DNA of 64,000 bases. Source: an uncultured Acidobacteriota bacterium. Its GTDB lineage: Bacteria > Actinomycetota > Acidimicrobiia > Spongiisociales > ZC4RG35. The stretch is taken from assembly GCA_963828465.1 (NCBI GenBank), contig CAWHEU010000025.1:128001-192000 (forward strand), given 5' to 3'. Shown here one piece after another: positions 8,260 to 25,740 of this stretch (position 1 is its first letter; every line of letters starts with the position of its first letter). The notes beneath the pieces were generated by a model that saw nothing but the letters and a program-made list of their open reading frames with translations, searched no databases and had not been told where the DNA came from. A program made the translations under genes and the position numbers.

Positions 8260-8298
8260 CGGGGAGACGCTATGGGCGACTGAGTTGGTGGCTGCAGA

Positions 8299-8317: not shown

Positions 8318-8398
8318 ACGGGGCCGAGCATCTTGACGTTTAGGGCCGCTTGAACCCGCCGCTCAGCCCGGAGGAATGTTCTTGTTGTGATGGAAGAC

Positions 8399-9095: not shown

Positions 9096-9260
9096 GGATT
9101 TTCCATTCACTTAGGTGATGTCTGTTCAGAAATCGCGCTCGAGCCCATTGCCAACCGGCGCCCAACGCATAACCCACCATGAACAAAATCCCGGAGACGA
9201 TTCCTTTCCATAGCGCCATTGACGACACACCCGGAACCTACGCCGCCGGTTGTGACGCTC

Positions 9261-9856: not shown

Positions 9857-10552
9857 GTGACGCTCGCCAAAGACCCTAAACCTCGCCCGCCCCTGACCAG
9901 AGAACGAGTCTTTCAGGCTGCCGTTGATTTGGCCGATCGAGACGGTCTCGGTGCCCTGACGATGCGTCGTTTGGGGACTGAGCTCGGCGTCGAGGCGATG
10001 TCGCTCTACAAACACGTCACCAACAAGGAGGAGATCCTCGACGGCATCGTGGAGGTCGTGGTGGGAGAGATCGAGACTCCACGAGAGGGGGCCGACTGGA
10101 AAGAGGCAATGAGACAGCGGGCGATCTCGGCCCGCGAGGTGCTCAGCCGCCACTCGTGGGCGATCGGACTGCTGGAAGCTCGCGATTCGAAGGGGCCGAC
10201 GGCATTGCGCTACATCGACTCGATCCTCGGGAACCTGCGCTCGGCCGGCTTCTCGATCGAGAACGCCGTCCACGCCTTCTGGCTCCTCGACAGCTTCGTC
10301 TACGGACAGGTGATCCAGGAGACGAACTTGCCCATCAGCAGCTCGAAGGAGATGACCGAGTCGACGGGATCCACCCTCGAGCAGGACACGATGGATCAGT
10401 ACCCGCATCTCGTCGAGATCGGAGAGCACGCAATGAGATCCGACTACACCGTCGACAAGGAGTTCGAATTTGGCCTCGATCTCATCCTCGAGGCACTCGA
10501 CCAGAACTCGATGTCCGTCACCTCGTCCCAAAGCACGAGCGCCCCGGGATGA
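9857..10552 (+). CDS. TetR/AcrR regulator with TetR_C domain
   Basis: LTMRRLGTELGVEAMSLYKHVTNKEEIL; EFEFGLDLIL; leaderless TAAGCT-N8-GTG. Confidence 0.93.
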   Translation: MTLAKDPKPRPPLTRERVFQAAVDLADRDGLGALTMRRLGTELGVEAMSLYKHVTNKEEILDGIVEVVVGEIETPREGADWKEAMRQRAISAREVLSRHSWAIGLLEARDSKGPTALRYIDSILGNLRSAGFSIENAVHAFWLLDSFVYGQVIQETNLPISSSKEMTESTGSTLEQDTMDQYPHLVEIGEHAMRSDYTVDKEFEFGLDLILEALDQNSMSVTSSQSTSAPG

Positions 10553-10666: not shown

Positions 10667-11461
10667 ATGAGTGAATCGGAGCCATGGGGGTCCGCCCTCT
10701 CGACCACATCCGCCGACCGCATTTCGATCCGTGGATTCGACATTGCCGAGCTGGCCGGAAATGTGGGCTTCGCTTCCGTCCTCTACCTGCTCTATGTGGG
10801 TGAACTCCCCGAGCCGGGGCCAGCCCGACTCTTGGATGCGCTGATGGTGGCTTCCATCGACCATGGACCGGCCACACCGTCGGCATCGGCGGCTCGTCTG
10901 GCGATATCGGGCGGAGGGTCTCTACAGGCAGCCGGCGCAGCCGGTCTTCTCACCATGGGGAGATACCACGGTGCGGCGGTGGAGGACGCTCTCGACACTC
11001 TCCAGGTCGTGATCGCCGGGTCGGACGAGGGTCGGGAGGTCGCCGGGGCCGCCGAGCAGGTAGTACGCGAGCGCTTGTCCGCAGGGATGCGCGTGTCCGG
11101 CTTTGGGCACCGCGAGCACAAGGAACGCGATCCCCGTGTCGTCAGGTTGTTCGCCGTGGCCGATGAGACCGGGGTCGCCGGTCCACATATCGAGGCTTGC
11201 CTTGCGGTTGAGGCCGCGTTGAGCCGGGTCACCGGAAAAGAGCTCCCGATCAACATCGACGGGGCCTTGGCCGCAGCACTCGGCGATCTCGGTTTTCCGC
11301 CCAAGTTCACCAACGCCGTCTTCATGGTCGCCCGTCTCGCCGGCGTCCTGGGACACGCCGCCGAGGAACGCGAGATGTCGCCTATGAGGCACATCGACTT
11401 CCAGGATCCCGGATACACCGGGCCAGCTCCGAGATCGCTCCCCAAGGAGGAGTCCCCGTGA
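10667..11461 (+). CDS. Citryl-CoA lyase-like protein (citrate synthase fold)
   Basis: IDHG, GRYHGAA, SGFGHR..KERDPR, PINIDG. Confidence 0.88.
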   Translation: MSESEPWGSALSTTSADRISIRGFDIAELAGNVGFASVLYLLYVGELPEPGPARLLDALMVASIDHGPATPSASAARLAISGGGSLQAAGAAGLLTMGRYHGAAVEDALDTLQVVIAGSDEGREVAGAAEQVVRERLSAGMRVSGFGHREHKERDPRVVRLFAVADETGVAGPHIEACLAVEAALSRVTGKELPINIDGALAAALGDLGFPPKFTNAVFMVARLAGVLGHAAEEREMSPMRHIDFQDPGYTGPAPRSLPKEESP

Positions 11462-13218
11462 ACGAAACCGTCGCAGCTCAGCTGGTGGATTACCTCGCCG
11501 ACCGCGGAGTCAGACACGTCTTCGGCCTTTGTGGGCATACCAACATCGCTGTGCTGTCGGCGATGGAGCACAGCCCGGTCGAATTCATAAATGTCCGCCA
11601 CGAACAGGTTGCCAGTCACGCCGCCGATGGATACGCCCGGGTCACCGGCAAGGCGTCAGTGTTGTTGACCCATCTGAGCCCGGGCCTCACCAATGCCGCG
11701 ACCGGAGTCGCCAACGCGGCGCTCGATTGCATTCCGATGGTGGTGATCGCCGGGGATGTCCCGACGTTCTATCACGGCAAGCACCCCCATCAGGAAGTGA
11801 ATCTCCACGCGGACGGCGCCCAATTCGAGATCTACCGACCCTTCGTCAAGCGTGCCTGGCGGGTCGACACACCGGAGTTGTTTCCCGAGATCATGGAGAA
11901 GGCTTTCTCCCTGGCCGAGTCGGGCCAACCGGGGCCCGTGTTGGTCGACGTGCCCATGGACGTCTTCTCTGCGCAGATCGACCCAGCCCTCTTTGCCCGA
12001 TTGGCGCACAACACCAAGGACCTCGTGCCCCCGTCGATGGACGACGAGACCGCGGAGAAGATCGTCCATCGCCTCGTAGCGTCGGACCGGCCAGTGATGT
12101 ACGTGGGTGGGGGGATCCATCTGGCCCGGGCGTCGGAGGAGTTGCGCACCTTCGTCGATCACATGTCGATCCCGGTCGCCCACAGCCTCATGGGCAAGGG
12201 CGCCCTGCCCGATGACCATCCGCTCGTGCTTGGCATGACCGGCTTTTGGGGAACCAGCCTGGTCAACCAGGCGTGCCTAGGAGCCGACACGATTCTCGCC
12301 ATAGGCACCCGGTTCAAGGAGGCCGACAGCAGTTCCTGGTACCCCGGTTACACCTTCGATATACCGAAGGCTCGCCTGATTCACATCGACATCGAGCCCA
12401 GCGAGATCGGAAGGAACTTCCCTGCCGACCTCGGGGTGGTCGCAGATGCCAGGGCAGCTCTGAGAGTGCTGAACCGAGTCGCGCGAGAGCTCTATCCCGA
12501 GGGGCGCCCGCCGGGCGAGGAGGCCGCAGCCATCCTCCGGTTCAGACGCGAATTCGAATCATCAAATCGGGCTATGGCGACGAGCGACGACTGGCCGATG
12601 ATGCCGGAGCGAATCCTGGCCGACACCCGGGCCGTCCTGCCCGCCGACGTCTACCTCACCACCGACGTCGGGTGGAACAAGAACGGCGTTGGCCAACAGT
12701 TCCCCATTCTCACACCGGGCACCTTCCTGACTCCGGGTGGGTTCGCGACCATGGGATTCGGACCGGGTGCCGCCATTGGTGCCAAATTCGCAGCCCCGAC
12801 TAGGACGGTCGTCTCCCTGGTCGGCGACGGTGGCTTTGGCCAGAACCCGGCAATGTTGTCGACGGCGGTGGAGCATGATCTCGGCATCACGTGGATCGTG
12901 ATGAACAACAACGCCTACGGGACCATTGCCGGTCTTCAGAAGGCGCATTTCGGCACGACGTACGGCACGACTTTTCCAGGGGCGATCGGTTCGGCATTGC
13001 CCGACTACGCCGCGATCGCCAGGGCGTATGGAGCCGAAGGCATCAAGGTCGAAGCCGCCGATCAGTTTCGGCCGGCGCTGGAGAAGGCATTGGCCATGGA
13101 GCGACCGGTCGTGATCGATGTAGCCATGGTCAACAATCCGACCCCGACCACCGGGCACTGGAACATCCTCGACATCTATTCGCCAGGTGAGGACGTGTCA
13201 CACGTGGCGACCGATTGA
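11458..13218 (+). CDS. Thiamine diphosphate-dependent enzyme (ALS/IolD-like superfamily)
   Basis: FGLCGHTN, RHEQ catalytic Glu, GDGGFG...NN ThDP motif; GTGA overlap. Confidence 0.92.
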   Translation: MNETVAAQLVDYLADRGVRHVFGLCGHTNIAVLSAMEHSPVEFINVRHEQVASHAADGYARVTGKASVLLTHLSPGLTNAATGVANAALDCIPMVVIAGDVPTFYHGKHPHQEVNLHADGAQFEIYRPFVKRAWRVDTPELFPEIMEKAFSLAESGQPGPVLVDVPMDVFSAQIDPALFARLAHNTKDLVPPSMDDETAEKIVHRLVASDRPVMYVGGGIHLARASEELRTFVDHMSIPVAHSLMGKGALPDDHPLVLGMTGFWGTSLVNQACLGADTILAIGTRFKEADSSSWYPGYTFDIPKARLIHIDIEPSEIGRNFPADLGVVADARAALRVLNRVARELYPEGRPPGEEAAAILRFRREFESSNRAMATSDDWPMMPERILADTRAVLPADVYLTTDVGWNKNGVGQQFPILTPGTFLTPGGFATMGFGPGAAIGAKFAAPTRTVVSLVGDGGFGQNPAMLSTAVEHDLGITWIVMNNNAYGTIAGLQKAHFGTTYGTTFPGAIGSALPDYAAIARAYGAEGIKVEAADQFRPALEKALAMERPVVIDVAMVNNPTPTTGHWNILDIYSPGEDVSHVATD

Positions 13219-13229
13219 AAGGAGCCGGC

Positions 13230-14637
13230 ATGACGCGGGAGATCACAGCAGAAGAACGGGACCTCGCCGCCACGATGCTCAGTCGTGCCAGAGCCGCCAT
13301 GGCCGAGATCGCCGACTACGACCAGGCAAGGGTGGACAGGTTGGCCCAGGCAATCGGGTGGGCCGTGGGCAACGAGGCGACCTTCACTCGACTCGGCCAG
13401 ATGGGGGTCGACGAGAGCGGAGCCGGTGATCGAGCCGGACGTCCGGCAAAGCGATTCAAGATCCACGGCATTCTCCGTGACGCCCTACGTCAGCCCAGTG
13501 TCGGCGTCATCGAGGAAGACCCGGAGAAGGGGATCGTCAAGTACGCCAAACCGGCCGGAGTCATTGCCTCGATCGTCCCCATGACGAACCCGGCCCTCAC
13601 CCCTCCAGGGACCGCCATCAACGCGATCAAGGCGAAGGATGCAGTGATCTTCTCGCCTCATCCCCGCACCAAGCGCACGACGTACGAGACGGTCGAGATC
13701 ATGCGCGCTGTCATGGCGCGGGAGGGCGCCCCGGCGGACATCTTCCAATGTGTCGAAGAGCCATCCATCCCGCTGGCCCAGGAGCTGATGGCCGTTTGCG
13801 ACATGACCCTTGCCACCGGCGGGCCCGCAATGGTCAAGGCCGCCTACAGCTCGGGCAAACCGGCGTTCGGTGTTGGTCAAGGGAACGCGACGATGGTGAT
13901 CGACGAGACGGCCGACATCGAGGAAGCCGCTCGCAACACCCGACTCTCCAAGACTTCCGACTTTGGGTCAGGTTGCTCGGCGGACGGCAACATCCTGATC
14001 GACGACACGATCTACGACCGATTCGTCGGCCAATTGGAGCTCGAAGGCGGATATCTCGTCACCCCCGAGGAGAAGGACCTGCTCGAACGCGCCATGTGGG
14101 CCCCCGATGGCACCCGCACTATCGAGACCGTCGCCCAGCCTGCCTCCAAACTGGCGGTAGAGGCAGGGTTCGCCATCCCTGATGACCGGCTGTTTCATCA
14201 TCGTCGAGCAGGAGGACATTGGAAAAGAGCACCGCTTCTCGGGCGAGAAGCTGACCTCAGTCCTTTCCGTGTATCGCTATCACGGATTCGAGGACGCACT
14301 CGACAAGGTCCGTCGCATCTACCAGGTGGCCGGGGCGGGCCACTCCTGTGGCATCTATTCGTTCGACGACGACCACATCGATCAGCTGGCGCGTGTGGCG
14401 CCGGTCAGCCGGATCATGGTTCGCCAACCTCAGTCGAAGGCCAACGCAGGATCTTTCACGAACGGCATGCCGATGACGTCCAGCCTCGGCTGTGGCATCT
14501 GGGGAGGCAATGTCACCAACGAGAACATCAGTCTCAAGCATTTCATGAACGTCACCTGGGTGAGTCGTCCCATCCCGGAGGACCGGCCGTCGGAGCAGGA
14601 GTTGTTCGGTGAGTTCTACGGGGCGGAGACCCCGTAG
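13230..14637 (+). CDS. CoA-acylating aldehyde dehydrogenase (SauS/AdhE-ALDH-like); frameshift near 14195
   Basis: PMTNP, FSPHP, ATGG, AYSSGKPAFGVGQGN, GSGCSAD; C-terminus (GEKL, GHSCG, SLGCGIWGGN) in ORF 14182-14637; one extra T in a TTT run. Confidence 0.88.
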
Positions 14638-14646
14638 GGATCGACG

Positions 14647-15486
14647 ATGAGCCGGCCTGAGTTCTCACTCGCATATCTGACCGCCTTCGGGACCGCTCCG
14701 GCCCGAATGGTCGACATCGCCGCCGAGACCGGTTACGACTACGTGAGTCTGCGTCTGACGCCGGTAACCGACCAAGAGCCGACATTTCCCTTCTTCACCG
14801 ACCCATCCGTTGTTGCCGACGTCAAAGCACGAATGGCCGACACCGGGGTCTCGGTGCTCGACGTCGAACTGATCAGGGTCGGCCCGGACGACGACCCTGC
14901 CGAATATGGGAGCTTCATGGAGATCGCCTCCGACCTCGGTGCCCGGCATCTCATCATGCAGCTCCCCGACCCCGATCGGAGCCGCGCTGCAGAGCGGTTC
15001 GCCCAAACTTGCCAGATGGCGGCGCCGTACCGCATGACCGTCGATCTCGAATTCATACCGTGGTCCACGACCGAGGATCTCGCCGCCGCCGTCGAGATAG
15101 TGACCAAGGCAGATCAGCCAAATGGGGGCGTGCTCATCGATACCCTCCATTTCGCCCGGTCCAAATCATCAGTTGCAGACCTGCAGCTGCTGCCCGAGAA
15201 CCTGTTCAATTTCGTCCAGCTCTGTGACGCCCCGTTCGAGGCTCCCAGGACACATGAAGGTCTGATCAATGCCGCCCGCACGGCTCGAAGCCTTCCCGGT
15301 CAGGCGGGCCTCGATCTGCGGCCTCTGATGGACGCCATCCCGAGGGTGCCATACTCGCTGGAAGTGCCCAACGACGTCATGCGGAACGATCTCGGGGTGG
15401 AGGAGTTTGCCCGACGCGTCCTGCGCGCCGGACAGACGTTCTTGGACCGGGACGAAACCGAATCGGCCAGGATCCGGACAGCACCG
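14647..15486 (+). CDS. Xylose-isomerase-like TIM barrel protein (AP_endonuc_2; IolE/AsbF-type fold), in frame with aroQ
   Basis: LEFIPW, LIDTLHF, QLCD, RSLPGQAGLDL, SLEVPN. Confidence 0.82.
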
Positions 15487-15942
15487 ATGACCACCGTCCT
15501 GGTGATGAACGGCCCGAATCTGAATCTGCTCGGGACTCGCGAACCGGGTATCTACGGGTCGGAGACACTCCCCGAGATCGTCGGCCGGCTTCGCGACCAC
15601 GCCACCGCTCGCGGAGTCGAGCTCAAGGATTTCCAGTCGAACACGGAGGGCGATCTGGTGACGATGCTCCACACCTCACGCGAGGAGGTGGACGGCGTGA
15701 TCCTCAACGCTGGGGCGCTCACCCATTACAGCGTCGCTCTGAGAGACGCCATCTCCGGGACGGGATTGCCAGTGGTCGAGACCCACATCTCGAACGTGCA
15801 CGCTCGGGAAGAGTTCCGCAAGACATCGGTGATCGCACCGGTCTGCGTTGGCATCGTGGCCGGATTCGGCGCCGAGAGTTATCTCGTGGCATTCGACGGG
15901 CTGATCCGGTACTTGGAGAAGCACGGCTCTGTCGAGGCCTGA
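15487..15942 (+). CDS. aroQ: Type II 3-dehydroquinate dehydratase
   Basis: NGPNLNLLGTREPGIYG, FQSNTEG, NAGALTHYS, VETHISNVHAREEFR. Confidence 0.95.
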   Translation: MTTVLVMNGPNLNLLGTREPGIYGSETLPEIVGRLRDHATARGVELKDFQSNTEGDLVTMLHTSREEVDGVILNAGALTHYSVALRDAISGTGLPVVETHISNVHAREEFRKTSVIAPVCVGIVAGFGAESYLVAFDGLIRYLEKHGSVEA

Positions 15943-15952
15943 CCGGCCGAGG

Positions 15953-17256
15953 TCAGAACGAAGCCCAGATCTTCTCCGTGTCGAGACCCCGACCGGCGAG
16001 CACATCCGATGGCGCCGTCGGGGAGGCCAGATGCAATCGCCCCAGTCCGACGATGTCGGTCGCTCCCGATCGCACCCGGCCTGGGCGACATTGGGCATCC
16101 ATTGCTGGAGGTAGCTGTACCCCGAGCCCACCACGAGCGAGTCCCGGCACGGCTTCCTTCAATCGCCTGGTCACATCGAGATGCCTGGCCACCCCAACAA
16201 GGGGATCCTCCGGTGGCAGGTACTCCCCGGGTGACACATTCAGGGCGGGTCTCTGCAGGTGACGCGCGTTGTAGGGGCTCGACCCGGTGATGCAGACCGG
16301 ATTGACCCCCATGTTCACGCATCATCGTCAGGAGTCTCACCGGCTCGCTGAGATCGATGCTGTGCCCGCTCTCATCGGTGCCGAACCAATAGCGGTAGTT
16401 GCCATCGGTGATCGGACGACCCACCCCGTGTTCATCCGCGACATGGGTCACGGTGTCGAAGGCACTGAGACGGAGGGCGAGCCGAATACCGGGGACCGCA
16501 GACTTGGCCCCTGACACGATGGAGGTGAGAAACCGAACACGGTTCTCGAACGACCCACCGAAATCCCCCGGTCGCTCGAATGCGCCGAGCAGCTCGTGAC
16601 CGAGATAGCCATGACAAGCCTTCAGATCGACGAAGTCGAATCCAGCTTCTGCCACGAGCCCCACTGCCGCGACGTAGGTCTCGATCAACCCGTAGATCTC
16701 ATCGTCGCCGAGGAGTGGCTGGCTTGGTGGCGGACCGACAGTCCGGTCGAGATAGGGGTGATGACGTACCGACACCGGTGAGCTCACGGCATGTGGCTTG
16801 CTGTATCGCCCGGAATGAGTGAGCTGCAGTCCAACCTTGAAATCCGCTGAGTCGCCATGAGCCTGGCGGTGGGCCTCGACGGCCGCCAGACGGAGCTTCT
16901 CGAGACCGGGCAGCGTGCTTCGGTCGACCAGCAACTGCTGGGGAGAGCTACGACCGTCGGCGCGCACTGCGGCCGACTCTCCCCAGATCAGCTTGGCGCC
17001 GCTTCGCCCCAGCCTCCGCCAGCGTTCCAAACTGGCATCCGTGGGATTCCCTTCCTCGTCGCTGTCCCATCCCTCCAGAGGGAGGATGCAGAACCTGTTG
17101 CCCACGACGAAATCCATCGATATCGACCGGCCAGCTCAGCGGGCCCGATGGGGCGGGCTCGAGGACTGCGTCGAAGGGGATCGCCACGCCCAGATCCTGA
17201 ACTCGGCTCTCGAATTCGCCAGGCGTGGTCATGGAGCGCAACGGTCTATACGGCAA
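15953..17256 (-). CDS. NADH:flavin oxidoreductase (old yellow enzyme family); several frameshifts
   Basis: NRFCILPLEGWD, GLQLTHSGR, GFDFVDLKACHGYLGHELL, FGGSFENR; N- and C-terminal parts in adjacent frames. Confidence 0.82.
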
Positions 17257-18051
17257 GGTCGAGCCCCTTCATCGTCGATCGCATAGCTGAGGAACTCGAT
17301 CTCCAGGGCCAGGTCGTGATTCGACACCTTGGTATGCACCGATCCGTGATCGAGGTTGGTGACGACCGTCGTGTTGCGCAGCGAATAGCGATCGGACCGA
17401 TCGGCCAACGCCGGCCAGTCTCTCGTGGAGGTCACGCACCAGCCCGGCCGATTCGAGGGTCACTCCGTAATGCCAGATGTCGTCTCCCGCCAAGCGCGAC
17501 CTGAACATGCCTGTGTCCAACGCGCTCATCTCGGACATTCATTGATTCCCGGGCAGACATTGCATCAAATCCGAAGGTCAGCACGGCGGTGGATGTCGAA
17601 GACCTCGAGCTCGAGGGCCCGCCCCTGATATCCGACCCACACCTGAGCCATCTCGACAAACGCACCCACACGATCCTGGAAAGCCTCCGAGGCGGGAATT
17701 CGCTTGGTTCCGACGACACTTGCCCCCAATCGGTCCGCCCAGATCGGGACACCCTCCAGGTAGATGTCGAGCGGCTCGGCGATGCTGAATCCGATATGAG
17801 CGACATCCGACCCCGTCGGTTGCATCCAGCACTGCCTCGACCAAATGCGGCTCGCCGCCGAAGAACTCTTCCATGAGCGACCGTTGCCCGACCGACCTCA
17901 GCTCCGTTGCGGCCATGATCGATGTCATCAGATCACTCCCGATGCCACGAGTCAGCGCCGAAGCGCTGTCGAGTCCCTTGAGGGCGAGCACCCGCTTGTG
18001 CCTCCGGCGCCAAAGCCGAATCCTGGCTCTGCTCTCGGCCACCCGCCTCAT
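17229..18051 (-). CDS. Hypothetical protein, possibly VOC/glyoxalase fold; about 3 frameshifts
   Basis: Stitched frames give AHIGF, LELEVFDIH, IWHYGVTL, LEIEFL; tightly packed between livF and the flavin oxidoreductase. Confidence 0.5.
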
Positions 18052-18058
18052 CGCCGTA

Positions 18059-18805
18059 TCAAGCCGGCTCGTCGATCTTCACCAACCCGCCGAGGAACAG
18101 GCTTCCGATCTGCGGATGCTCGAGGATCTCGTCCGCCCGCCCTTCCAGGACCGCCCGGCCTTGTTGGAGAACGATCCCGAAGTCGCTCACCTCCAGCGCC
18201 TTCTTCGCGTTTTGCTCGATCATCAACACCGTGATCCCGGTCTCGACGAGGCCCCGGAGCAGACCGAAGACCTGGCTGACGAGGAGAGGCGACAAACCGA
18301 TCGAGGGTTCGTCGATCAAGAGGAGACGTGGCTCGAGGAGAAGGGCCCGACCCACCTCGAGCATCTTTTGCTCCCCCCCGCTGAGGGTGCCCGCCTGTTG
18401 GTTCGACTTGTTCGCCAACACCGGGAACTGCTGAAAGGCAATGGTGTCGATCCGATCACGGGTCAGTTCGAGATCCTTGAGGCTGACGCCGCCCAACTCC
18501 AGATTGTCTCTCACCGACATGCGGGGGAAGATGTTTCTGCCCTGAGGGACGAAGGCGATACCCCGGTTCAACAACTCCAACTGTGGCGACCCGACGATGT
18601 CGTCGCCGTCGTAGACGATTCGACCCGACTCGACCTTCACCATGCCGAACACGGCTTTGAGTGCCGTGGACTTGCCGGCCCCGTTGGGCCCGATGACCGT
18701 CGTCATGGAGTGACTGTTCACGTCGAAGGTGGTCTCGTGGAGCACGGTTGCCATCCCGTATCCGGCCACGACCGCATCGAGCCGGAGTATCGAGGTGTCA
18801 GGCAC
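18059..18805 (-). CDS. livF: Liv-type ABC transporter ATPase
   Basis: GPNGAGKST, VPQGRNIF, LSGGEQ, DEPSIGL. Confidence 0.92.
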   Translation of the reverse strand: MPDTSILRLDAVVAGYGMATVLHETTFDVNSHSMTTVIGPNGAGKSTALKAVFGMVKVESGRIVYDGDDIVGSPQLELLNRGIAFVPQGRNIFPRMSVRDNLELGGVSLKDLELTRDRIDTIAFQQFPVLANKSNQQAGTLSGGEQKMLEVGRALLLEPRLLLIDEPSIGLSPLLVSQVFGLLRGLVETGITVLMIEQNAKKALEVSDFGIVLQQGRAVLEGRADEILEHPQIGSLFLGGLVKIDEPA

Positions 18806-19568
18806 CGAGGTAGACCTTGACGACCCGGGGATCGGCCCTCACCTCAGCAGGTGTGCCTTCCATCAGAATCGACCCTTCCGCCATGACTATCACCCGACTG
18901 GCCAGCCCGAAGATGAACTCCATGTTGTGCTCCACAATGGCGAAGGTGACTCCCTGTTCGGTGTTGAGCTCACGAATCCTGCCTTCCAGGTCTCCGAGCA
19001 TCCCCGGGTTCACCCCTCCCGCAGGCTCGTCGAGGAAGACGACCTCCGGGTTGGCCATGAACGCCATCGCTGTGTCGAGCAGCTTCTTCTGGCCAAACGA
19101 GAGGCTCGCGGCGTATTGGTCGGCAAGGTGCCCGAGCCGGAACCGATTCAGGACCGCATCGACAGTCGCGTCGAGACCCAGGTTCGGGCTCTTGAAGAGC
19201 GTGCCTGCGATGGTCGAGATATGAGGCTGGGCCGCAGTCATCAGGTTCTCCCGCACGGTCATTGAATCGAACACCTGGAGAAGCTGGAACGTGCGCGCCA
19301 GCCCGTACTTGGCCCGGCGATGGGGCATCCATTTCGTGACGTCGGTCTCGCCCACGGTCACGGTGCCGCCATCGGACCGATATTGCCCCAGCACGCAGTT
19401 GAAGAGGGTCGTCTTGCCGCATCCATTGGGACCGATTAGGCCAAGGATCTCGCCCGGGTACACATCGAAGGAGACATCGTTGACCGCGGTGATGCCGCCA
19501 AAGCGCTTGGACACGTTGCGCACACTCACCAACGGCGTCCTCGCCTCGGCGATGGCGCTGACGGTCAT
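18798..19568 (-). CDS. livG: Liv-type ABC transporter ATPase
   Basis: GPNGCGKTT, LSFGQKK, LDEPAGG, VKVYLG. Confidence 0.92.
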   Translation of the reverse strand: MTVSAIAEARTPLVSVRNVSKRFGGITAVNDVSFDVYPGEILGLIGPNGCGKTTLFNCVLGQYRSDGGTVTVGETDVTKWMPHRRAKYGLARTFQLLQVFDSMTVRENLMTAAQPHISTIAGTLFKSPNLGLDATVDAVLNRFRLGHLADQYAASLSFGQKKLLDTAMAFMANPEVVFLDEPAGGVNPGMLGDLEGRIRELNTEQGVTFAIVEHNMEFIFGLASRVIVMAEGSILMEGTPAEVRADPRVVKVYLGA

Positions 19569-20782
19569 GTTCCCCTCCTCTTGGCGGCGATGCTGGCCCT
19601 GAACAGGTTGAAGCTGCCGGCGATCCCTCTCGGCGCCACGATCAGGACGACGATGGCGAGCAGACCAAACCAGAACCTGTACCAGTCACCGAGAACACGC
19701 AGAGAGTCGGAGACGATGGTGATGAACGACGTCCCGATGAGGGGCCCGGCCAGTGTCCCCAAACCACCTATGACCGTTGCGAAGAGAAAGTCGAAGGACT
19801 GTCCGAGGAAGAAACTTCGTGGCTCGATGTACTCCAACAGACGCGCATAGAGGGCCCCGGCACCCCCGGCCAGCCCGGAACCGATGGCGAAGGCCAGCAA
19901 TGTGTAGGTGCGGACATCGATCCCGAGACTCGACGCTCGTTGGGAATTGTCCCGAATCGCCTTGAACGACCTGCCCCATGGTGAGCGAACGATCCACCAA
20001 ACGATGATCATCGTCAGCACGAGGAATGCGAGACAAAGGTAGTAGTAGTTCTGCAACGGGGTCATGTCGATTCCGAGGACCTCGAGGTCCTGTCTCCTAA
20101 CGATGATGCCCCTAGAGCCATTTGTGATGCCGACCTCGTTGTTGAAGACGATGTAGACGAGGACATTGAAGGCCAGAGTCACGAACGCGAGCCACGGGCC
20201 ACGCACCCGCAGGCCAGCCATGCCGATCAGGATGCTGAACAGCATGGCGACCGCGATCGCGATCACCATTGTCAGCAGAAAAGGGAGATCGGGCAGGTCG
20301 ATCACGATCCCGAACGCTTCGATCTCGCGGCCGGAGTCGAGGAGCACCGACGTGTAGGCGCCGATGCCCAGGAATGCAGCCTGCGCGATCGATACCTGCC
20401 CCGCATATCCGAACATGAGGTTCATCCCGATCACACACACCGAGAAGACCGCATAGAGCCCGAAGTCGGTGAGGGTCGAGTTCGCCCGACCGAAGGGAAA
20501 GACGACCAGGAATGCCACGAAACAGACGGTGGACATGACTCGCACGGCAGTGCCGTTCCTGCTGGCCCTGGGGATGAGGAGATTCGCCCCGAGGACTCCG
20601 GCGAGGACGAGCACCCACAGCCACATGACCGGTGTGAACTCGGATCTGCCGATTGGGAACCACACGAGGAAGGCCATTGCAAGCGTCAAGCCGGCAATTA
20701 GGAGAGGGGACAAGACGCCGCGGTCTTCAGACCTGGCCCGGGTCAGCTCGCGGTCATCGACGATCTGATCCCGGCCGCTCAT
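19565..20782 (-). CDS. livM: Liv-type ABC transporter permease
   Basis: GYAGQVSIAQAAFLGIGAY, SPWGRSFKAIRD. Confidence 0.9.
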   Translation of the reverse strand: MSGRDQIVDDRELTRARSEDRGVLSPLLIAGLTLAMAFLVWFPIGRSEFTPVMWLWVLVLAGVLGANLLIPRASRNGTAVRVMSTVCFVAFLVVFPFGRANSTLTDFGLYAVFSVCVIGMNLMFGYAGQVSIAQAAFLGIGAYTSVLLDSGREIEAFGIVIDLPDLPFLLTMVIAIAVAMLFSILIGMAGLRVRGPWLAFVTLAFNVLVYIVFNNEVGITNGSRGIIVRRQDLEVLGIDMTPLQNYYYLCLAFLVLTMIIVWWIVRSPWGRSFKAIRDNSQRASSLGIDVRTYTLLAFAIGSGLAGGAGALYARLLEYIEPRSFFLGQSFDFLFATVIGGLGTLAGPLIGTSFITIVSDSLRVLGDWYRFWFGLLAIVVLIVAPRGIAGSFNLFRASIAAKRRGT

Positions 20783-21726
20783 ACGATCCGCTCCTCAGGC
20801 CGACCGAACAGTCCCTGTGGCCGCCAGAGGATGACGATGATCATCAGGACGAGGGGGATGAACTCCCTGTAGGCGCTGGACAGATAGGTGCCCGACCAGT
20901 TCTGGATGACACCGACCAGGAACCCACCGAACAGTGCTCCCCTCACCTGGTTGAAGCCCCCGATGATCGCCGCGGTGAACGCAGCCAAACCGAGAGAGAT
21001 GCCGCCGTCGAATCGTGCTGTCGTCACCGGGGCCACGAGCAAAGCGGCAACAGTGACCAGCGCTGCGTTGATGGCGAAGGTGTAGAAGACCATCCGATTC
21101 ACCGGAATCCCCAACACGCGAGCCGTCTCCTGGTTCTGGGCGGTCGCCTGCATCTGCCTCCCGGTGTAGGTGCGATTGAGGAAGAATTGGAGGCCGATGA
21201 TCACGACAGTCGCGACGACGAGGACACCGACGTCGATGGCAGTGATGGACACACCCCCGACGTTCCATACGTAGTTGCCGAATGGTGAGGGAAACCTCTG
21301 GGGGGCGGCGCCGAAGGAGATGCGCAGGTATTCGCGCATCACGAGAGCCAATCCCAAGGTCGCGATCACTAGCGGGATGTCGTCCCCGCCGGGCTCGAGC
21401 AGCTGGTCGACCATCGTTCGCTTGAACACGTAGCCGAGCAGGAAGATCATCAGGGGCACCGTGATCGCGAAGGCGGCGATGATGCCCAGCTGCGGAATGG
21501 GACCGACGAGTTGGGTCCCCCCGATCAGGGGTATGAACTCGGGTATGCCGATCACCGGCTGCTGGGTGAGAACCAGCATCACCACTGCGGGCAGCACGAT
21601 GAATTCCCCGTGAGCGAAGTTGATTGCGCCGGCGGTCTGCCATAGGAGCGCGAAACCGACTGCGGCGATGGCGAAAACCGCGCCGGTGGCCAGCCCGGAG
21701 AAAGTGACCTGTAGGAACTGCTCCAT
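20779..21726 (-). CDS. livH: Liv-type ABC transporter permease
   Basis: INFAHGE, GRQMQATAQN, AAIIGGF. Confidence 0.9.
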   Translation of the reverse strand: MEQFLQVTFSGLATGAVFAIAAVGFALLWQTAGAINFAHGEFIVLPAVVMLVLTQQPVIGIPEFIPLIGGTQLVGPIPQLGIIAAFAITVPLMIFLLGYVFKRTMVDQLLEPGGDDIPLVIATLGLALVMREYLRISFGAAPQRFPSPFGNYVWNVGGVSITAIDVGVLVVATVVIIGLQFFLNRTYTGRQMQATAQNQETARVLGIPVNRMVFYTFAINAALVTVAALLVAPVTTARFDGGISLGLAAFTAAIIGGFNQVRGALFGGFLVGVIQNWSGTYLSSAYREFIPLVLMIIVILWRPQGLFGRPEERIV

Positions 21727-21750
21727 GAACGGGTGTGGGCGGCGACGCTA

Positions 21751-21786
21751 ATCGGCCGACGTCGGCTTGCGCTGACGTCGGCCGAT
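21751..21786. other. Intergenic hairpin after the substrate-binding gene (mRNA stabiliser or partial terminator)
   Basis: ATCGGCCGACGTCGGC-ttgc-GCTGACGTCGGCCGAT. Confidence 0.65.
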
Positions 21787-21811
21787 CAACTCACTCAGTG
21801 AGACCCTTGCT

Positions 21812-23116
21812 TCAGCAGCCTCGTTCCGACAGGTTGTCGAGCGGTGGCGCACTGGCAGCCACCACACCGACGCCATCGACGACCTCGAGGATGAAGCTCT
21901 CACGGTCGAGGTCTCCATTGCCATCGAAGGTCACATCAAGAAGCACACCCGGCTCGTCATCCACCGTGATCGTGGCGCAGTGCAACTGATCAGCGAGGGC
22001 GAGACGATCGAATCCACCGATCCTCTCGGTCATCTCCTTGACGTAGTGCACCGACATGTAGCCCTTGATGTTGTTGTGGTCCACTCCCTCGATACCGGGG
22101 TGGAACTCCTCATGGGCGGTGCGCCAGTCGGCGAACACATCCGCACCGGCAGCCAGGTTCGAGTGCGACTTGGCTCCATCGCCGGCGCCGGGCTGGGCGA
22201 GCTCCAGCGAGGCAGGGGAAGTGAGCACGTCACCGCCGTACAGGGGCTTTGCCAGACCCTGGGCCGTCCGCTCGTCGAGGAAGGCACCCGTCTCGATCTC
22301 CGTCATGTAGACGAACACCGAGTCGGAGTCCGAGGCGATCAATTGAGCCACCTCACCCGACTGGTCGAGCTGATCTGGCTGCACCAGGATCTCCTCGCCT
22401 ATCTCGATGCCCTCGGCTTCCATCGCGTCGCGATGTGCCCCGGCGCCTCCGGCTCCGAACTCGTCGTTCTTGTAGATGATGTCGACCTTCTGCACGCCTT
22501 CTTCAAGCATGAACTCCACGAGCTTGGGAGCGGCGTTGTCACCGCCGAACGAGGTTCGGAAGATGAAGTTGTTGTCGCCGTTCAGCTCTCGGTTGGTGAT
22601 GTCGGGAGCTTCGGCACCGACAAACTGCGGGATCTCGGCTTCCTGTGCTACGACCATGTTGACGATGGTCACGCTGGAGAACACGGTCCCGAGGAGGGCG
22701 TAGGGGTCCAACTCCACACCTTCGGAGACGACTTGCAAGCCGATGTCCGGGTCACCCTGAGTGCCCTCGAACTGGACTTCCACCGTGCACCCGAGGATTC
22801 CGCCCTCATTGTTGACGTCGGCGATGGCGTGCTCGATCCCGGCGCGCCAGTTGACGCCCGCAGGCTGGTTCTCTTCATAGGGCGCGAAAAGGAACACGCT
22901 GTTGTTCTCGTGGGGACACTCAGCCTCGGCGGCCGCCGTGGTGGTGGCTCCCGCCGCAGTCGTCGTGGTCTCGGCCTCGTCGCCCGCGGTCGTAGTCGCC
23001 TCTTCGCCGGCGGACGTCGTCGTCCCTTCCTCGCCACCGGTGCCTCCGCAAGCTGCCATCAGCAACGTGAGCACCGCCAGCAAGGCCAGCAACCGGTTCC
23101 CTCGCTTCTCGGTCAT
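21812..23116 (-). CDS. Liv-type ABC substrate-binding lipoprotein
   Basis: Lipobox MAAC, Thr-rich linker, Peripla_BP_6-like body (NNEGGILG, FRTS, NDEFG). Confidence 0.88.
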   Translation of the reverse strand: MTEKRGNRLLALLAVLTLLMAACGGTGGEEGTTTSAGEEATTTAGDEAETTTTAAGATTTAAAEAECPHENNSVFLFAPYEENQPAGVNWRAGIEHAIADVNNEGGILGCTVEVQFEGTQGDPDIGLQVVSEGVELDPYALLGTVFSSVTIVNMVVAQEAEIPQFVGAEAPDITNRELNGDNNFIFRTSFGGDNAAPKLVEFMLEEGVQKVDIIYKNDEFGAGGAGAHRDAMEAEGIEIGEEILVQPDQLDQSGEVAQLIASDSDSVFVYMTEIETGAFLDERTAQGLAKPLYGGDVLTSPASLELAQPGAGDGAKSHSNLAAGADVFADWRTAHEEFHPGIEGVDHNNIKGYMSVHYVKEMTERIGGFDRLALADQLHCATITVDDEPGVLLDVTFDGNGDLDRESFILEVVDGVGVVAASAPPLDNLSERGC

Positions 23117-23160
23117 CTCATCCTCCTCCACGGGAACCCGCCCTCATCGCGCATTCCCGA

Positions 23161-23203
23161 ATTGAATGCAGTGAATATAGCGATAAGGTTCGCGGTGCGT
23201 CAA
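23161..23203 (-). promoter_or_regulatory. SigA-type promoter with the same operator as 10628
   Basis: Minus strand TTGACG-N18-TATATT with overlapping ATTCACTGCATTCAAT (23176-23161). Confidence 0.7.
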
Positions 23204-24057
23204 TTGATTGGAAGCAGCGCCCGCATCTCGATCTCCACCCCCGTGGCGACCTCGTCGGGCAGGTCGATCCCGGTGAAGTGATGGAAAGCGTCGAGAGCCT
23301 GGCCGAGAAAGAGCTCCAATCCGTCGAAGACCATCAGTCCAGCCTCCATCGCCCTTTGCACCAATGGCGTGTGCACCGGTGTGTAGACCGCGTCGAACAG
23401 CCACTGCTGTCCGCCGATCGCGTCGAGCGAGACAGGAGTCCCAGGCGAGAAGTGCATACCGAGAGGTGTCCCGTTGAAGATCCCGGTCGCCGCTCGAACA
23501 GCCGCTTCCTGGGTGGCTCGGCTCACGGCTGTTCCCGGGAAGCTCCGAACGAGATCGTGCACTAGCTTCGCCGCCCGACCTGGGTCGAGGTCCGAGACCC
23601 GTATCTCCTCGGCACCCAGGCCGGCGAAGGCGAAGGCGGCCGCCCGTCCCACGCCTCCCGCGCCGATTATCGCCACCCTCCCTGGTGTCTCCGCCCCCAT
23701 CCGCTCCCGCCACCGACGCTGCAGACCGGAGTGATCCGTGTTGAAGCCGCTGACGACATTATCGGGTCCGAACACGAGAGTGTTGACCGCCCCAATCGAG
23801 TTCACGCCTGGCCCGGCGAGGTCCGCGAGGTCCAGGGCGGCTTGCTTGAACGGGTAGGTGACGTTGATGCCGTCGAACCCCTGTGAACTGACACCCCGGA
23901 TCACCGCGGCCAACTCCTCTGCGTCGAGGTCCGGTTGGGCGAGCAGGTCGTAAGTGACGTCCAATCCCATCCGTGCCCCGGCCTCGATGTGAAATGCCGG
24001 CGCCAGGGAACGGCTGATATTCGAGCCAATGAGCCCAAGCCGAATGCGTCGAGTCAA
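23200..24057 (-). CDS. Shikimate/quinate dehydrogenase family protein
   Basis: LGLIGSNISRSLAPAFH, GINVTYPFK, GAVNT, GFNTD, GAGGVG; TTG start overlaps the GntR stop. Confidence 0.88.
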   Translation of the reverse strand: MTRRIRLGLIGSNISRSLAPAFHIEAGARMGLDVTYDLLAQPDLDAEELAAVIRGVSSQGFDGINVTYPFKQAALDLADLAGPGVNSIGAVNTLVFGPDNVVSGFNTDHSGLQRRWRERMGAETPGRVAIIGAGGVGRAAAFAFAGLGAEEIRVSDLDPGRAAKLVHDLVRSFPGTAVSRATQEAAVRAATGIFNGTPLGMHFSPGTPVSLDAIGGQQWLFDAVYTPVHTPLVQRAMEAGLMVFDGLELFLGQALDAFHHFTGIDLPDEVATGVEIEMRALLPIN

Positions 24058-24836
24058 TCCTGTGCCAGGTCTTGGGAACTGTCGCTGGATCCGTCCATCG
24101 CCCAGAGGCGTTTCAGTGACGCCGATCCGGTGGTGACACGATGACCATCTCGACCCAGCGGTGAGACGATTCTCACGACCTCTCCGTATTCCTGGGCGAG
24201 CTCGATGTCGCCATCGACGACTGCGTGGAACAAGTTGGCATGCGCCTCGATCCGTCGACGCTCCCGGGAGGCTTCGGGCCCGGTATCGGGGAAGTCCACA
24301 TCGATGATCAGAGCCTCGGCTGCATCGAGGAGGTTCTGGTAGATCAAACGCAAAGTGGCGCTGTCTGCAAGCTTCAACAGCAACCGGTGCCCCCTCCATA
24401 TGACGCGCTGGGTATCGAAGGAGATCTCGGCGTTGTCGAGATGTCCTGCGATCGCATCGAGTTCGGCGAGGTCTTTGGGGTCCCGATCGGCGGCTCGGGC
24501 AGCCGAGACGCCGAGGAGCGAGGTGAGGGCCTCTCGCAACTCGATATTCTCCCCGAGCGACTGGGCGTTTCTCGCCCACAATTGCTTTGTACCGAGGCGA
24601 AGCACCGGTTGAGACTGGGCGACGAAGACACCACCCTTCGGGCCCCGTCTCAGGGAGACCAACCCGTCATTGGCGAGGAGCTTCAGGGCCTGATCGAGAG
24701 TCGGCCCGGCGACTCTGAACTCGGCTTGTAGCTCGGACTTGAGACCGATCCGATCACCAGGCTCCAGATGCCCATCGGTGATCCGCTGCTCGATGACGCT
24801 CCGGATCCACTCCGGTACCGATTCCAATCTATCCAT
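24054..24836 (-). CDS. GntR/FadR-family transcriptional regulator
   Basis: GHLEPGDRIG..SELQAEFRVAGPTLDQALKLLANDGLVSLRRGPKGGVFV plus FCD-like helical domain. Confidence 0.85.
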   Translation of the reverse strand: MDRLESVPEWIRSVIEQRITDGHLEPGDRIGLKSELQAEFRVAGPTLDQALKLLANDGLVSLRRGPKGGVFVAQSQPVLRLGTKQLWARNAQSLGENIELREALTSLLGVSAARAADRDPKDLAELDAIAGHLDNAEISFDTQRVIWRGHRLLLKLADSATLRLIYQNLLDAAEALIIDVDFPDTGPEASRERRRIEAHANLFHAVVDGDIELAQEYGEVVRIVSPLGRDGHRVTTGSASLKRLWAMDGSSDSSQDLAQD

Positions 24837-24903
24837 CAACGTTCATTCGGTCTCGACGATCCACGAAACAGGGTGGCCCACCCTCGGCGCTATTTTAGCC
24901 TCA

Positions 24904-25740
24904 ATGAGTTTAGGGAATGGCGGCCTGATCCCCACAGGGACATCGGACCTGTACAGCATTATCGGGCACCCGGTCACTCAGGTCCAGGCCCCGGGACTGT
25001 TCAACCAGTTCTTCGCAGAAACCGGAGCCGACGCGGTTTTCGTCGCCCTCGATCTCGACCCTGAGGGGGTCAGGTCCTTCTTCGAGGCAATGAGGGTCGC
25101 CGCCAATTACCGCGGGGGATTCGTGACCGTTCCTCACAAGGGAGCCGCTTCAGGCTGCATGGACGAGCTCACAACCCGGGCTCGTGCGCTCGGGTCAGTC
25201 AATGCCGTCAAGAACGACCATGGCCGGCTGATCGGCGACATGACCGATGGGCCCGCGTTCCTCGAGGCAACCCGAGGGCGCGGGCTGGATGTTCGGGGTC
25301 GCCGAGTGGCGATGATCGGCGGGGGTCACGCAGCGACGGCGATAGCACATGCCTGCGCCGAACAGGGAGCAGCGGAACTGGTGATGAGCGTCCGCCGCAC
25401 TGAGCGCCATGCCGAGCTGCGCCGGATAGTCGAGTCGGTCCCCGAACCACCCCAGCTCAGCTTCGACCTCGAAACCCTGGATGGGTTCGATCTCGTCATC
25501 AACGGGACGACCGTGGGGATGGCGGACGACCCCAATGTCCCGTTCCCGGTCGACACGATGTCGCCGTCGTCACTCATAGCCGAGGTGGTGACTCAGCCAA
25601 GGGTGACTCCTTGGCTAAGAGCCGCGCTCGACCGAGGCTGTCGTGTCCAGTACGGACGGGACATGACGCGTGCCCAGACCCAGCTGGTCGGACCGTGGTG
25701 GGGTCTCGATCTCCCCCTTGTGGATTGGGACGCCGGCTAG
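24904..25740 (+). CDS. Second shikimate dehydrogenase family protein
   Basis: IIGHPVTQVQAP, VTVPHK, GSVNAV, GDMTDG; leaderless TATTTT-N7-ATG. Confidence 0.88.
   Translation: MSLGNGGLIPTGTSDLYSIIGHPVTQVQAPGLFNQFFAETGADAVFVALDLDPEGVRSFFEAMRVAANYRGGFVTVPHKGAASGCMDELTTRARALGSVNAVKNDHGRLIGDMTDGPAFLEATRGRGLDVRGRRVAMIGGGHAATAIAHACAEQGAAELVMSVRRTERHAELRRIVESVPEPPQLSFDLETLDGFDLVINGTTVGMADDPNVPFPVDTMSPSSLIAEVVTQPRVTPWLRAALDRGCRVQYGRDMTRAQTQLVGPWWGLDLPLVDWDAG

Follow-up and report, generated by a model that had tools for sequence, protein, structure and literature searches.

A conserved gene module around an acetolactate synthase-like thiamine diphosphate enzyme as a candidate for non-aromatic quinate and shikimate catabolism

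The window analyzed here is a stretch of 64,000 nucleotides (positions 128,001 to 192,000 of contig CAWHEU010000025.1, assembly GCA_963828465.1) from an uncultured bacterium of the GTDB class Acidimicrobiia. Gene families were placed by Pfam and NCBIfam profile scans of the open reading frames (ORFs) of the window, and relatives in the PDB were identified by sequence search. On the plus strand an operon was found, which encodes a citryl-CoA lyase-like protein (CCL), a short citrate synthase homologue (10667..11461), a thiamine diphosphate (ThDP) enzyme similar to acetohydroxyacid synthases (AHAS; 11458..13218), a CoA-acylating aldehyde dehydrogenase (ALDH) of the SauS/EutE-like type (13215..14637), a xylose isomerase-like TIM barrel (14647..~15480) and the type II 3-dehydroquinate dehydratase AroQ (15487..15942, with its own ATG). 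Together with an importer and paralogues of shikimate dehydrogenase (SDH), this operon may form a quinate/shikimate catabolic module in which the ring is opened without oxygen and without aromatization. For this specific reading our confidence is slightly less than even. That the genes serve a non-aromatic, ThDP-dependent pathway for hydroaromatic acids in some form, be it this route or a variant acting on the same substrate, is judged probable. The genes had been listed before in a first-pass annotation made from the letters of the window, and they were found where it had placed them, apart from one gene labelled 'VOC-like' (vicinal oxygen chelate) and from several frame breaks; a TetR gene just upstream of the operon had been missed.

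The arrangement is not confined to the window. Among 40 relatives, six possess a ThDP orthologue with an identity of at least 75%, the other matches being paralogues that are approximately 33% identical. Close named homologues of the ThDP enzyme come from metagenome-assembled genomes (MAGs) of Acidimicrobiia. Three relatives (G030, G008 and G011) share the operon order CCL-like gene, ThDP enzyme, ALDH, TIM barrel and AroQ, followed by a convergent aroK-aroB gene. One relative that is 97% identical (L021) is labelled as an uncultured Acidobacteriota bacterium. For the rest of the close relatives the label is Acidimicrobiia or Acidimicrobiales, and that of L021 looks wrong.

A scan for ThDP orthologues with one genome per species yielded 412 relatives, of which the best 80 loci (identity of at least 70%) were kept and their neighbors counted by tblastn. 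An acylating ALDH is located beside the ThDP enzyme in all 80 loci, a small TIM barrel occurs in 72 and a CCL-like gene in 60. A gene similar to 3-hydroxy-3-methylglutaryl-CoA (HMG-CoA) lyase, referred to as HMGL, was detected in nine loci. CCL and HMGL never occur together and one of the two is present in 69 loci; among the 11 loci with neither lyase, seven are shorter than 13 kb. Further neighbors are a QuiC-like protein of 630 amino acids (56 loci), Gfo/IDH/MocA dehydrogenases (44), a tripartite ATP-independent periplasmic (TRAP) transporter (43), SDH (31), AroQ (19), an AroB-like match (10), a Tct transporter (6), a Liv-type binding protein (5) and an old yellow enzyme (OYE) family protein (3). 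At least one of SDH, AroQ and the QuiC-like protein accompanies the ThDP gene in 72 loci; if only loci with a length of at least 19 kb are considered, this holds for 55 of 58. The co-occurrence of the ThDP family with shikimate dehydrogenases and CoA lyases, by which the first-pass annotation had proposed to judge its reading, was found in most of the 80 loci for a lyase and in a minority of them for SDH. Since the core recurs in all 80 loci, its clustering is not a product of chance. Directly visible in the data are these gene families, the fact that they occur together closely and in many lineages, and the exchange of one lyase for the other.

The carriers among the 80 loci comprise Acidimicrobiia and many Rhodobacterales (including cultured Ruegeria, Shimia, Nioella, Aliiroseovarius, Thalassobius, Tropicimonas and Aliiruegeria), Roseibium/Labrenzia, Hoeflea, Rhodospirillales, a gammaproteobacterium, a Myxococcota MAG, a Prolixibacteraceae MAG, 'Bacterium UASB270' and 'Deltaproteobacteria bacterium SG8_13' (locus L099). 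In alphaproteobacteria, the genes usually lie on one strand in the order DctPQM, QuiC-like, (SDH), CCL, (Gfo, unknown, Gfo), TIM barrel, ALDH and ThDP enzyme, those in parentheses being optional. In the class to which L099 belongs, 5 of 301 sampled genomes contain a ThDP orthologue, and in all five of them the TIM barrel, the ALDH and an HMGL-like gene are located within 10 kb, with SDH present in three. Of the four genomes other than that of L099, one has AroQ and one AroK-AroB. The ThDP tree is at odds with taxonomy, as Myxococcota, Bacteroidota and gammaproteobacterial sequences are nested among alphaproteobacterial ones and identities of 70-79% are retained across phyla. Because the tree mixes phyla in this way, it suggests horizontal transfer of the whole module.

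The most telling result of the analysis concerns the lyase. The CCL of the window matches the Pfam family Citrate_synt and exceeds the cut-off of NF004869 (228.3 bits versus 212); over residues 7-261 it aligns with the citryl-CoA lyase of Hydrogenobacter thermophilus (PDB 6hxp, E 1.1e-46). An alphaproteobacterial CCL reached 438 bits with NF004864, whose cut-off is 261. The blocks DHGP, GFGHRxHKxxDPR and NIDG, which we take to be those with the catalytic His, His and Asp of citrate synthases, are invariant in 10 of 10 aligned CCL homologues. Judged by its sequence, the protein is a true homologue of citryl-CoA lyase, with a substrate specificity that lies beyond what the sequence can tell. In the nine loci mentioned above, the HMGL-like gene takes the slot of CCL and never stands alongside it, and the same was observed in the four further genomes of the class of L099. 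Citrate synthase-like and HMG-CoA lyase-like lyases cleave 3-hydroxy-3-substituted, i.e. tertiary, acyl-CoAs. Because two unrelated lyase families fill one and the same slot, the CoA ester produced by the ALDH should bear a tertiary alcohol in the position beta to its thioester group. Only quinate and 3-dehydroquinate possess such a carbon among the acids of the shikimate pathway, namely C1, which carries OH and COO- between two CH2 groups. The exchange of the lyase thus points to a tertiary-alcohol intermediate of the kind to which C1 of quinate or dehydroquinate would give rise.

The pathway put forward in the first-pass annotation can be mapped onto these genes as follows, where we infer the substrate, each intermediate and the regiochemistry. 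After import of the substrate, an enzyme of the shikimate dehydrogenase family would oxidize quinate to 3-dehydroquinate; alternatively, shikimate would be converted to 3-dehydroshikimate and hydrated back to 3-dehydroquinate by AroQ. The TIM barrel would then beta-eliminate the C5 hydroxyl group, a reaction of the IolE or dehydroshikimate dehydratase type, giving 1-hydroxy-3,4-dioxocyclohexanecarboxylate. Hydrolysis of the C3-C4 bond by the ThDP enzyme, as by IolD and cyclohexane-1,2-dione hydrolase (CDH), would yield homocitrate semialdehyde, an aldehyde-acid, which the acylating ALDH would turn into the CoA thioester homocitryl-CoA. Finally, the CCL-like lyase, or its HMGL-like counterpart in other lineages, would release acetyl-CoA and 2-oxoglutarate. 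A cleavage beside C3 is supported because the ThDP enzyme precedes aldehyde oxidation, because the TIM barrel resembles enzymes that enolize and beta-eliminate keto-cyclitols and because dehydrogenases of the shikimate family are present. The route as a whole appears to be the shortest that can be written to reach central metabolites with precisely the genes of the core. Oxygen independence fits as well, since the module occurs in genomes without a recognized protocatechuate dioxygenase and in a Desulfobacteria-type class.

All comparative tests that were run fitted the logic of this pathway (co-occurrence, exchange of the lyase, folds close to the TIM barrel), whereas its chemistry is not proven and the ThDP enzyme turned out not to be an orthologue of IolD or CDH. 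Tentatively, soil Acidimicrobiia, marine Rhodobacterales and sediment lineages of the Desulfobacteria type may share an undescribed, oxygen-independent pathway from quinate or shikimate to acetyl-CoA and 2-oxoglutarate, which would bypass protocatechuate and beta-ketoadipate and rely on a new ThDP ring hydrolase and a lyase of the (homo)citryl-CoA type. The first-pass annotation knew of no description of such a route. Likewise, neither a description nor the term homocitryl-CoA was found in the full text of open-access papers and bioRxiv preprints, supplementary files aside.

The ThDP enzyme contains three TPP domains and scored above the cut-off of no NCBIfam model. The HEQ motif with the catalytic Glu is located at residue 48 and GDG at residue 456, both in conserved blocks. 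Across 81 orthologues, 214 of 586 positions are invariant, among them the motifs GLCGHTN and KHPHQE, to which the first-pass annotation had drawn attention. In acetolactate synthases, their counterparts in the alignment are GYPGGAI and DAFQE, so that invariant histidines stand in place of GYPGGA and DAF. These replacements are an indirect hint to a hydrolytic cleavage of a cyclic 1,2-dione, and a role as ring-opening C-C hydrolase is proposed for the enzyme. Its best match in the PDB is BbmA (E 1e-77), followed by acetolactate synthases and glyoxylate carboligase. CDH of Azoarcus, likewise an AHAS-like ThDP enzyme, converts a cyclic 1,2-dione by hydrolysis into an omega-oxo acid. His27 of the ThDP enzyme corresponds to residue 28 of CDH by the phmmer offset, which is not a residue-by-residue alignment; His28 of CDH is presumably needed for C-C cleavage. 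Xsc, which acts on sulfoacetaldehyde, is an AHAS-like ThDP enzyme too, with whose model the window enzyme reached 281 bits at a cut-off of 620. No sulfonate-related family was found among the annotated recurrent neighbor families of the module.

For the ALDH, SauS is the best NCBIfam model, but its cut-off is not reached: the intact orthologue of G030 scored 470 bits over positions 4-460 of 464 (cut-off 600), the ALDH of the window 280 bits over the first 320 residues. The G030 protein also matched the N-terminal domain of AdhE (382 bits) and the EutE type (319 bits), whereas models of hydrolytic ALDHs gave at most 50 bits. As every match remained below the equivalog cut-off, the enzyme is regarded as a member of the acylating family and not as SauS itself.

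In the assembly of the window, the ALDH is read in two frames due to a +1 frameshift near 14191-14193, where there is one T too many. Near 15473, an indel of 1 base fuses the reading frame of the TIM barrel to AroQ, and it is only through this indel that the two are in frame here. The OYE gene and a neighboring hypothetical gene show several single-base breaks each. In a relative (G003) that is 97% identical, the ALDH is whole and uninterrupted ORFs are found for OYE and for the hypothetical gene; in G003 and G030 the genes of the TIM barrel and AroQ are separate and overlap. The copy of the cluster in G012 is full of frame breaks and was left out for gene structure. Logan contigs of four soil metagenome runs, which belong to related strains that are 92 to 99+% alike, were compared over 13000-18100. 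They lack the indels of the window wherever they cover positions 14191/2, 15473, 16076, 16132/4, 16314, 17263, 17411/2, 17537 and 17578; the extra T is absent in 3 of 3 covering runs and the indel at 15473 in 4 of 4. These contigs show that the intact gene form is the common one among related soil strains. They fit both assembly errors and real strain-specific decay in the window, two explanations that cannot be told apart. In the present analysis, the OYE gene and the hypothetical gene were at first taken for decaying pseudogenes, as the indels relative to G003 concentrate there. Since both are contiguous in G003 and the four soil runs are free of the indels, this was withdrawn as a firm claim. 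The second shikimate kinase gene of the genome (G000:C4:80251-80701) is split into two frames that are one base apart; single-base frame breaks therefore occur outside the cluster too in this assembly.

The TIM barrel belongs to the Pfam family AP_endonuc_2. Its structural model (mean predicted local distance difference test score, pLDDT, 92) is closest to the folds of IolI (1i60), Lmo2234 (2g0w) and QuiC1 (5hmq), with a template modelling (TM) score of 0.8 to 5hmq, while AsbF ranked 23rd and IolE (3cny) 27th with 12% identity. With the QuiC model NF042435 the protein reached 37 bits (cut-off 1200), phmmer gave E values of 1e-5 for 5hmq and 0.004 for AsbF, and there was no NCBIfam match to IolE. 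The proximity of the modelled fold to enzymes acting on keto-cyclitols speaks in favor of the proposed route, and in view of the fold similarity to 5hmq a chemistry related to that of dehydroshikimate dehydratases is possible. According to an excerpt of a study on Listeria (bioRxiv 10.1101/2025.04.08.647683), the regulator Lmo2233 lies divergently upstream of the shikimate-induced qui2 operon; as Lmo2234 adjoins Lmo2233, it would stand in a hydroaromatic context as well. The study names a dehydratase QuiC2, with which Lmo2234 may be identical. AroQ is clearly recognized by Pfam DHquinase_II (E 3.6e-54), TIGR01088 (185.6 bits, cut-off 169.85) and NF003807 (197.6 bits, cut-off 130). The QuiC-like protein of other loci consists of two domains, a TIM barrel and a domain like 4-hydroxyphenylpyruvate dioxygenase (HPPD), and scored 461 bits with the QuiC model, for which the cut-off is 1200.

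These relationships bear on the classical aromatic route, in which AroQ and the TIM barrel, acting as a dehydratase of the Lmo2234/QuiC type, would produce protocatechuate, whereas the ThDP enzyme, the ALDH and CCL would serve an unrelated substrate. Lmo2234 and QuiC1 are indeed among the nearest solved relatives of the TIM barrel, in relatives the genes of the TIM barrel and AroQ are coupled by an overlap, and QuiC-like genes are common in alphaproteobacterial operons. On the other hand, the small TIM barrel tracks the ThDP-ALDH pair far more than AroQ (72 versus 19 of the 80 loci). It also weighs against this explanation that operons as compact as this one, when they are retained in several phyla, seldom combine functions that have nothing to do with each other. 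In AsbF, as given in an excerpt of the corresponding paper (PMC9324987), the catalytic His144 follows two residues after Glu142. In an alignment of 24 TIM barrel sequences, the His after the glutamate of the LEF motif, which is matched to the AsbF position by motif only, is not invariant. Moreover, the host genome contains neither an intradiol nor a recognized protocatechuate 4,5-dioxygenase. Altogether, the classical route is considered unlikely.

The host genome has a size of 3.07 Mb in 29 contigs, a G+C content of 64% and a completeness of 92%. A profile search of this whole genome, 92% complete as it is, yielded no PF00775 intradiol dioxygenase, and no recognized protocatechuate 4,5-dioxygenase was found in it; one LigB-family gene is located on another contig and scores as HpaD-like below the cut-off. 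The statement of the first-pass annotation that the window contains no recognizable ring-cleavage genes of the pca or lig type thus holds, and extends to the genome with the one exception named. PF00775 gave no match in the genomes holding L099, L063 and L059 either. In the genome of L099, an open frame of 478 amino acids is a strong match to the LigB family, with 262 bits (L106, G041:C101:381-4172). A homologue of aromatic ring-opening dioxygenases is thus present in a presumed anaerobe. A variant in which protocatechuate undergoes 4,5-cleavage and the pathway ends in citryl-CoA, by ThDP-dependent decarboxylation of 4-carboxy-4-hydroxy-2-oxoadipate, was rejected because no LigAB-, LigI- or LigJ-type family recurs by the module, and also in view of the occurrence of the module in the class of the sediment deltaproteobacterium.

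Elsewhere in the host genome there are a chorismate synthase gene beside a second AroB-like gene (aroC-aroB), a second AroQ, a third SDH and the second, split shikimate kinase. Because of these, the aro-type genes of the cluster are extra copies. A biosynthetic role of the cluster, prompted by the adjacent aroK-aroB gene, was considered and discarded, as separate aro copies exist in the genome and the module is not located beside biosynthetic genes outside the Acidimicrobiia.

It is also conceivable, although rather unlikely, that the same class of substrate and the same modular logic are combined with another chemistry, in which case CoA ester and final 2-oxoacid would be compounds other than homocitryl-CoA and 2-oxoglutarate. 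The ThDP enzyme might directly cleave the alpha-hydroxyketone of 3-dehydroquinate, or else cleave another derivative that was oxidized by Gfo/IDH/MocA dehydrogenases. Alternatively, the QuiC-like protein might be the real dehydratase and the small TIM barrel an IolI-like isomerase. Such variants are in line with the Gfo/IDH/MocA genes in 44 of the 80 loci, which often occur as a pair with a protein of 224 amino acids and with no SDH. In structure, the small TIM barrel comes closest to the isomerase IolI, a second, QuiC-like TIM domain is found in 56 of the 80 loci, and nothing fixes the regiochemistry. However, the versions of the Acidimicrobiia and of the Desulfobacteria type have only the small TIM barrel and yet keep the ThDP enzyme, the ALDH and the lyase. 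The route by way of homocitryl-CoA also seems to be the only one that can be written to reach central metabolites with the core genes alone. The protein of about 224 amino acids is encoded between two Gfo/IDH/MocA genes in 15 of the 80 loci (e.g. L054:4531-5172 and L060:4736-5410) and has no match in Pfam or NCBIfam.

On the importer side of the cluster, the genes from OYE to a GntR regulator lie on the minus strand and converge on the plus-strand operon. The ATPases and permeases of an ABC transporter, LivF, LivG, LivM and LivH (18059..21726), were recognized by Pfam ABC_tran and BPD_transp_2 and by an NCBIfam LivF-like model. They are accompanied by a periplasmic binding protein (21812..23131, Pfam Peripla_BP_6), whose PDB matches are weak, the best being 4evq (E 5e-9). 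Next to it is SDH1 (23200..24057, with a likely TTG start at 24057), a shikimate/quinate dehydrogenase paralogue that scored 222 bits with NF009201 (cut-off 235). This transporter operon is headed by the regulator gene (24054..24839; Pfam GntR, E 2e-9, and FCD, E 3.9e-8). The second paralogue, SDH2 (24904..25740, ATG at 24904), is situated on the plus strand and remained below all NCBIfam cut-offs for shikimate dehydrogenases. As the scores are below the cut-offs and both proteins contain Shikimate_dh_N, SDH1 and SDH2 were assigned at the family level. Downstream of SDH2, on the plus strand, follows a fusion of shikimate kinase and 3-dehydroquinate synthase, AroK-AroB (25801..27426; Pfam SKI, DHQ_synthase and DHQS_C; TIGR01357 305.6 bits, cut-off 305). 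Fusions of this kind adjoin the module of Acidimicrobiia and, in one case, that of a Desulfobacteria-type genome (window, L024, L027, L029, L031, L033, L034 and L115). For the role of AroK-AroB we can offer only guesses: salvage of imported shikimate, or the feeding of 3-deoxy-heptulosonate into dehydroquinate.

The TRAP binding protein of the alphaproteobacterial version shares 73% identity with PDB 4PF6 (RD1_0742 of R. denitrificans) and approximately 28% with sialic acid binders. In sialic acids, as in quinate, a single ring carbon bears OH and COO- and has a CH2 group as its neighbor, and relatives of this type would be compatible with a quinate-like ligand. They may also be taken to indicate that the substrate is a 3-deoxy-2-ulosonic sugar acid such as 3-deoxy-D-manno-octulosonate (KDO) or 3-deoxy-arabino-heptulosonate, which the ThDP enzyme would decarboxylate, the ALDH convert to a 3-hydroxyacyl-CoA and the lyase cleave to acetyl-CoA; in Acidimicrobiia, AroK-AroB might feed such an acid into 3-dehydroquinate. 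Besides the closeness to 4PF6 and, more remotely, to sialic acid-binding proteins, the position of the AroK-AroB fusion by the module in Acidimicrobiia and one Desulfobacteria-type genome is in accordance with this possibility. Nevertheless, we regard it as very unlikely. SDH, AroQ or QuiC-like genes, specific to the carbocyclic acids of the shikimate pathway, are present in 72 of the 80 loci, and decarboxylation of an ulosonic acid gives a secondary alcohol, whereas the CCL and HMGL families cleave tertiary 3-hydroxyacyl-CoAs. Moreover, a ligand that was identified by screening may stand in for quinate, with which it shares the arrangement of OH, COO- and CH2.

Of the remaining neighbors, the OYE-family flavin oxidoreductase (15953..17117, minus strand) matches Pfam Oxidored_FMN over residues 7-230. 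The conserved hypothetical gene (~17232..17897, minus strand) is free of known domains and encodes 225-234 amino acids when intact in relatives. It had been called 'VOC-like', a label that found no support: neither its pieces nor the intact form of G003 gave a Pfam match, no PDB match was obtained, and a comparison with the HPPD-like domain of the QuiC-like proteins by hhalign resulted in a probability of 0.1%. The family comprises 29 proteins without Pfam domains (including L013:17763-18563), whose many invariant His, Glu and Asp residues suggest a metal site. Two of the homologues are encoded on contigs that agree in length (264628 and 82465) with contigs on which ThDP orthologues are found. 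The TetR-family regulator (9857..10552, plus strand; Pfam TetR_C_1, E 4.6e-24, and TetR_N) is located 114 bases upstream of the operon. The cluster is flanked by an AlkZ-like DNA glycosylase gene (27483-28598) and by a DUF4118 fragment of the KdpD type (7891-8613); a DUF4260 gene (8691-9110) and a tRNA gene (47904-47976) are found elsewhere in the window.

A number of findings weigh against the oxygen-independent quinate/shikimate route via homocitryl-CoA. The best NCBIfam models for the ThDP enzyme are acetolactate synthases (413 bits, below the cut-off), IolD is not among the 25 of 53 NCBIfam matches listed for it, and CDH (2pgn) takes a middling position among 127 similar PDB sequences (E 3.4e-45). 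A closer kinship to IolD and CDH, which the first-pass annotation had cited as enzymes that open such rings, is not borne out, as by these searches the enzyme is no closer to them than to acetolactate synthases. A real dehydroshikimate dehydratase, QuiC1, is among the nearest folds of the TIM barrel, and the small TIM barrel could itself be such a dehydratase. The QuiC-like protein could make protocatechuate and feed the classical route; since it is present in 56 of the 80 loci, a parallel aromatic branch is possible. In addition, LigB-family (PF02900) matches were obtained in all three non-proteobacterial genomes checked (L099, L063 and L059). The ligand in 4PF6 is presumably KDO, and if so, the substrate may be a sugar acid.

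Other points of this kind concern the neighborhood and its sampling. Many of the 80 loci are close kin, particularly those of Ruegeria, and hence not independent. The HMGL-linked loci mostly form one deep clade of the ThDP tree, with one CCL exception, and because of this single deep split the exchange of the lyase reflects few independent events. AroQ occurs in only 19 and SDH in only 31 of the 80 loci. As the module of the Acidimicrobiia adjoins aroK-aroB and an aroE-like gene, its hydroaromatic neighborhood may be partly biosynthetic. The proposed route leaves the roles of the Gfo pair, the protein of 224 amino acids, OYE, the hypothetical protein and AroK-AroB unexplained, and in the assembly of the window the ALDH is frameshifted.

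Quinate, shikimate and the quinate derived from chlorogenic acid are abundant sources of plant carbon. To our knowledge, the only established bacterial route for their degradation proceeds via protocatechuate and needs oxygen for ring cleavage. Brune and Schink (1992) reportedly described fermenters in which hydroaromatic acids are broken down and no aromatic intermediates arise, and we know of no genes that have been assigned to this physiology. If the proposed pathway is correct, its gene set would explain such a fermentative, non-aromatic breakdown. A function would then be given to a very large and conserved family that is annotated as 'acetolactate synthase' or 'thiamine pyrophosphate-binding protein', the annotation of carbon flow in abundant marine and soil groups would change, and the enzyme toolbox would be extended by a ThDP C-C hydrolase and a lyase specificity that are both new. 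As cultured carriers exist (strains of Ruegeria, Roseibium, Shimia and Aliiruegeria), the idea is directly testable.

With regard to known systems, the ThDP enzyme matches CDH over its full length and has a histidine at the equivalent N-terminal position, as estimated by offset; as a relative, though, CDH comes far behind BbmA, the acetolactate synthases and glyoxylate carboligase. The proposed last step would be a retro-Claisen/aldol cleavage to acetyl-CoA and a keto acid, as catalyzed by citryl-CoA lyase (6hxp) and HMG-CoA lyase. Unlike the enzyme of Hydrogenobacter thermophilus, the CCL of the module stands in a catabolic context and not in the reductive citric acid cycle, and its proposed substrate is one CH2 group longer than citryl-CoA. 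With classical quinate/shikimate catabolism (QuiA/QsuD, QuiB/AroQ, QuiC/QsuB and the beta-ketoadipate pathway) the module shares the clustering of SDH, AroQ, QuiC-like proteins and dedicated importers. By contrast, the conserved core of ThDP enzyme, ALDH, TIM barrel and lyase has no role there, and no protocatechuate dioxygenase was found in the host genome. A further parallel is the catabolism of myo-inositol by IolG, IolE, IolD and IolA, which comprises, in the order proposed here for the module, oxidation of a ring hydroxyl, beta-elimination by a TIM barrel to a 1,2-dione, ring opening by an AHAS-like ThDP enzyme and a CoA-acylating end; Gfo/IDH/MocA dehydrogenases related to IolG are present in 44 of the 80 loci. 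Differences are that the ThDP enzyme is not an IolD orthologue, that the TIM barrel resembles IolI and QuiC1 more than IolE, and that steps corresponding to IolB, IolC and IolJ are missing. Instead, acylation would be direct by an enzyme of the SauS/EutE type, a CCL- or HMGL-type lyase would come last, and the neighbors are genes of the shikimate pathway and not of inositol metabolism. By analogy, the module might therefore be seen as the logic of inositol catabolism, applied to a new class of substrates and provided with a new ending.

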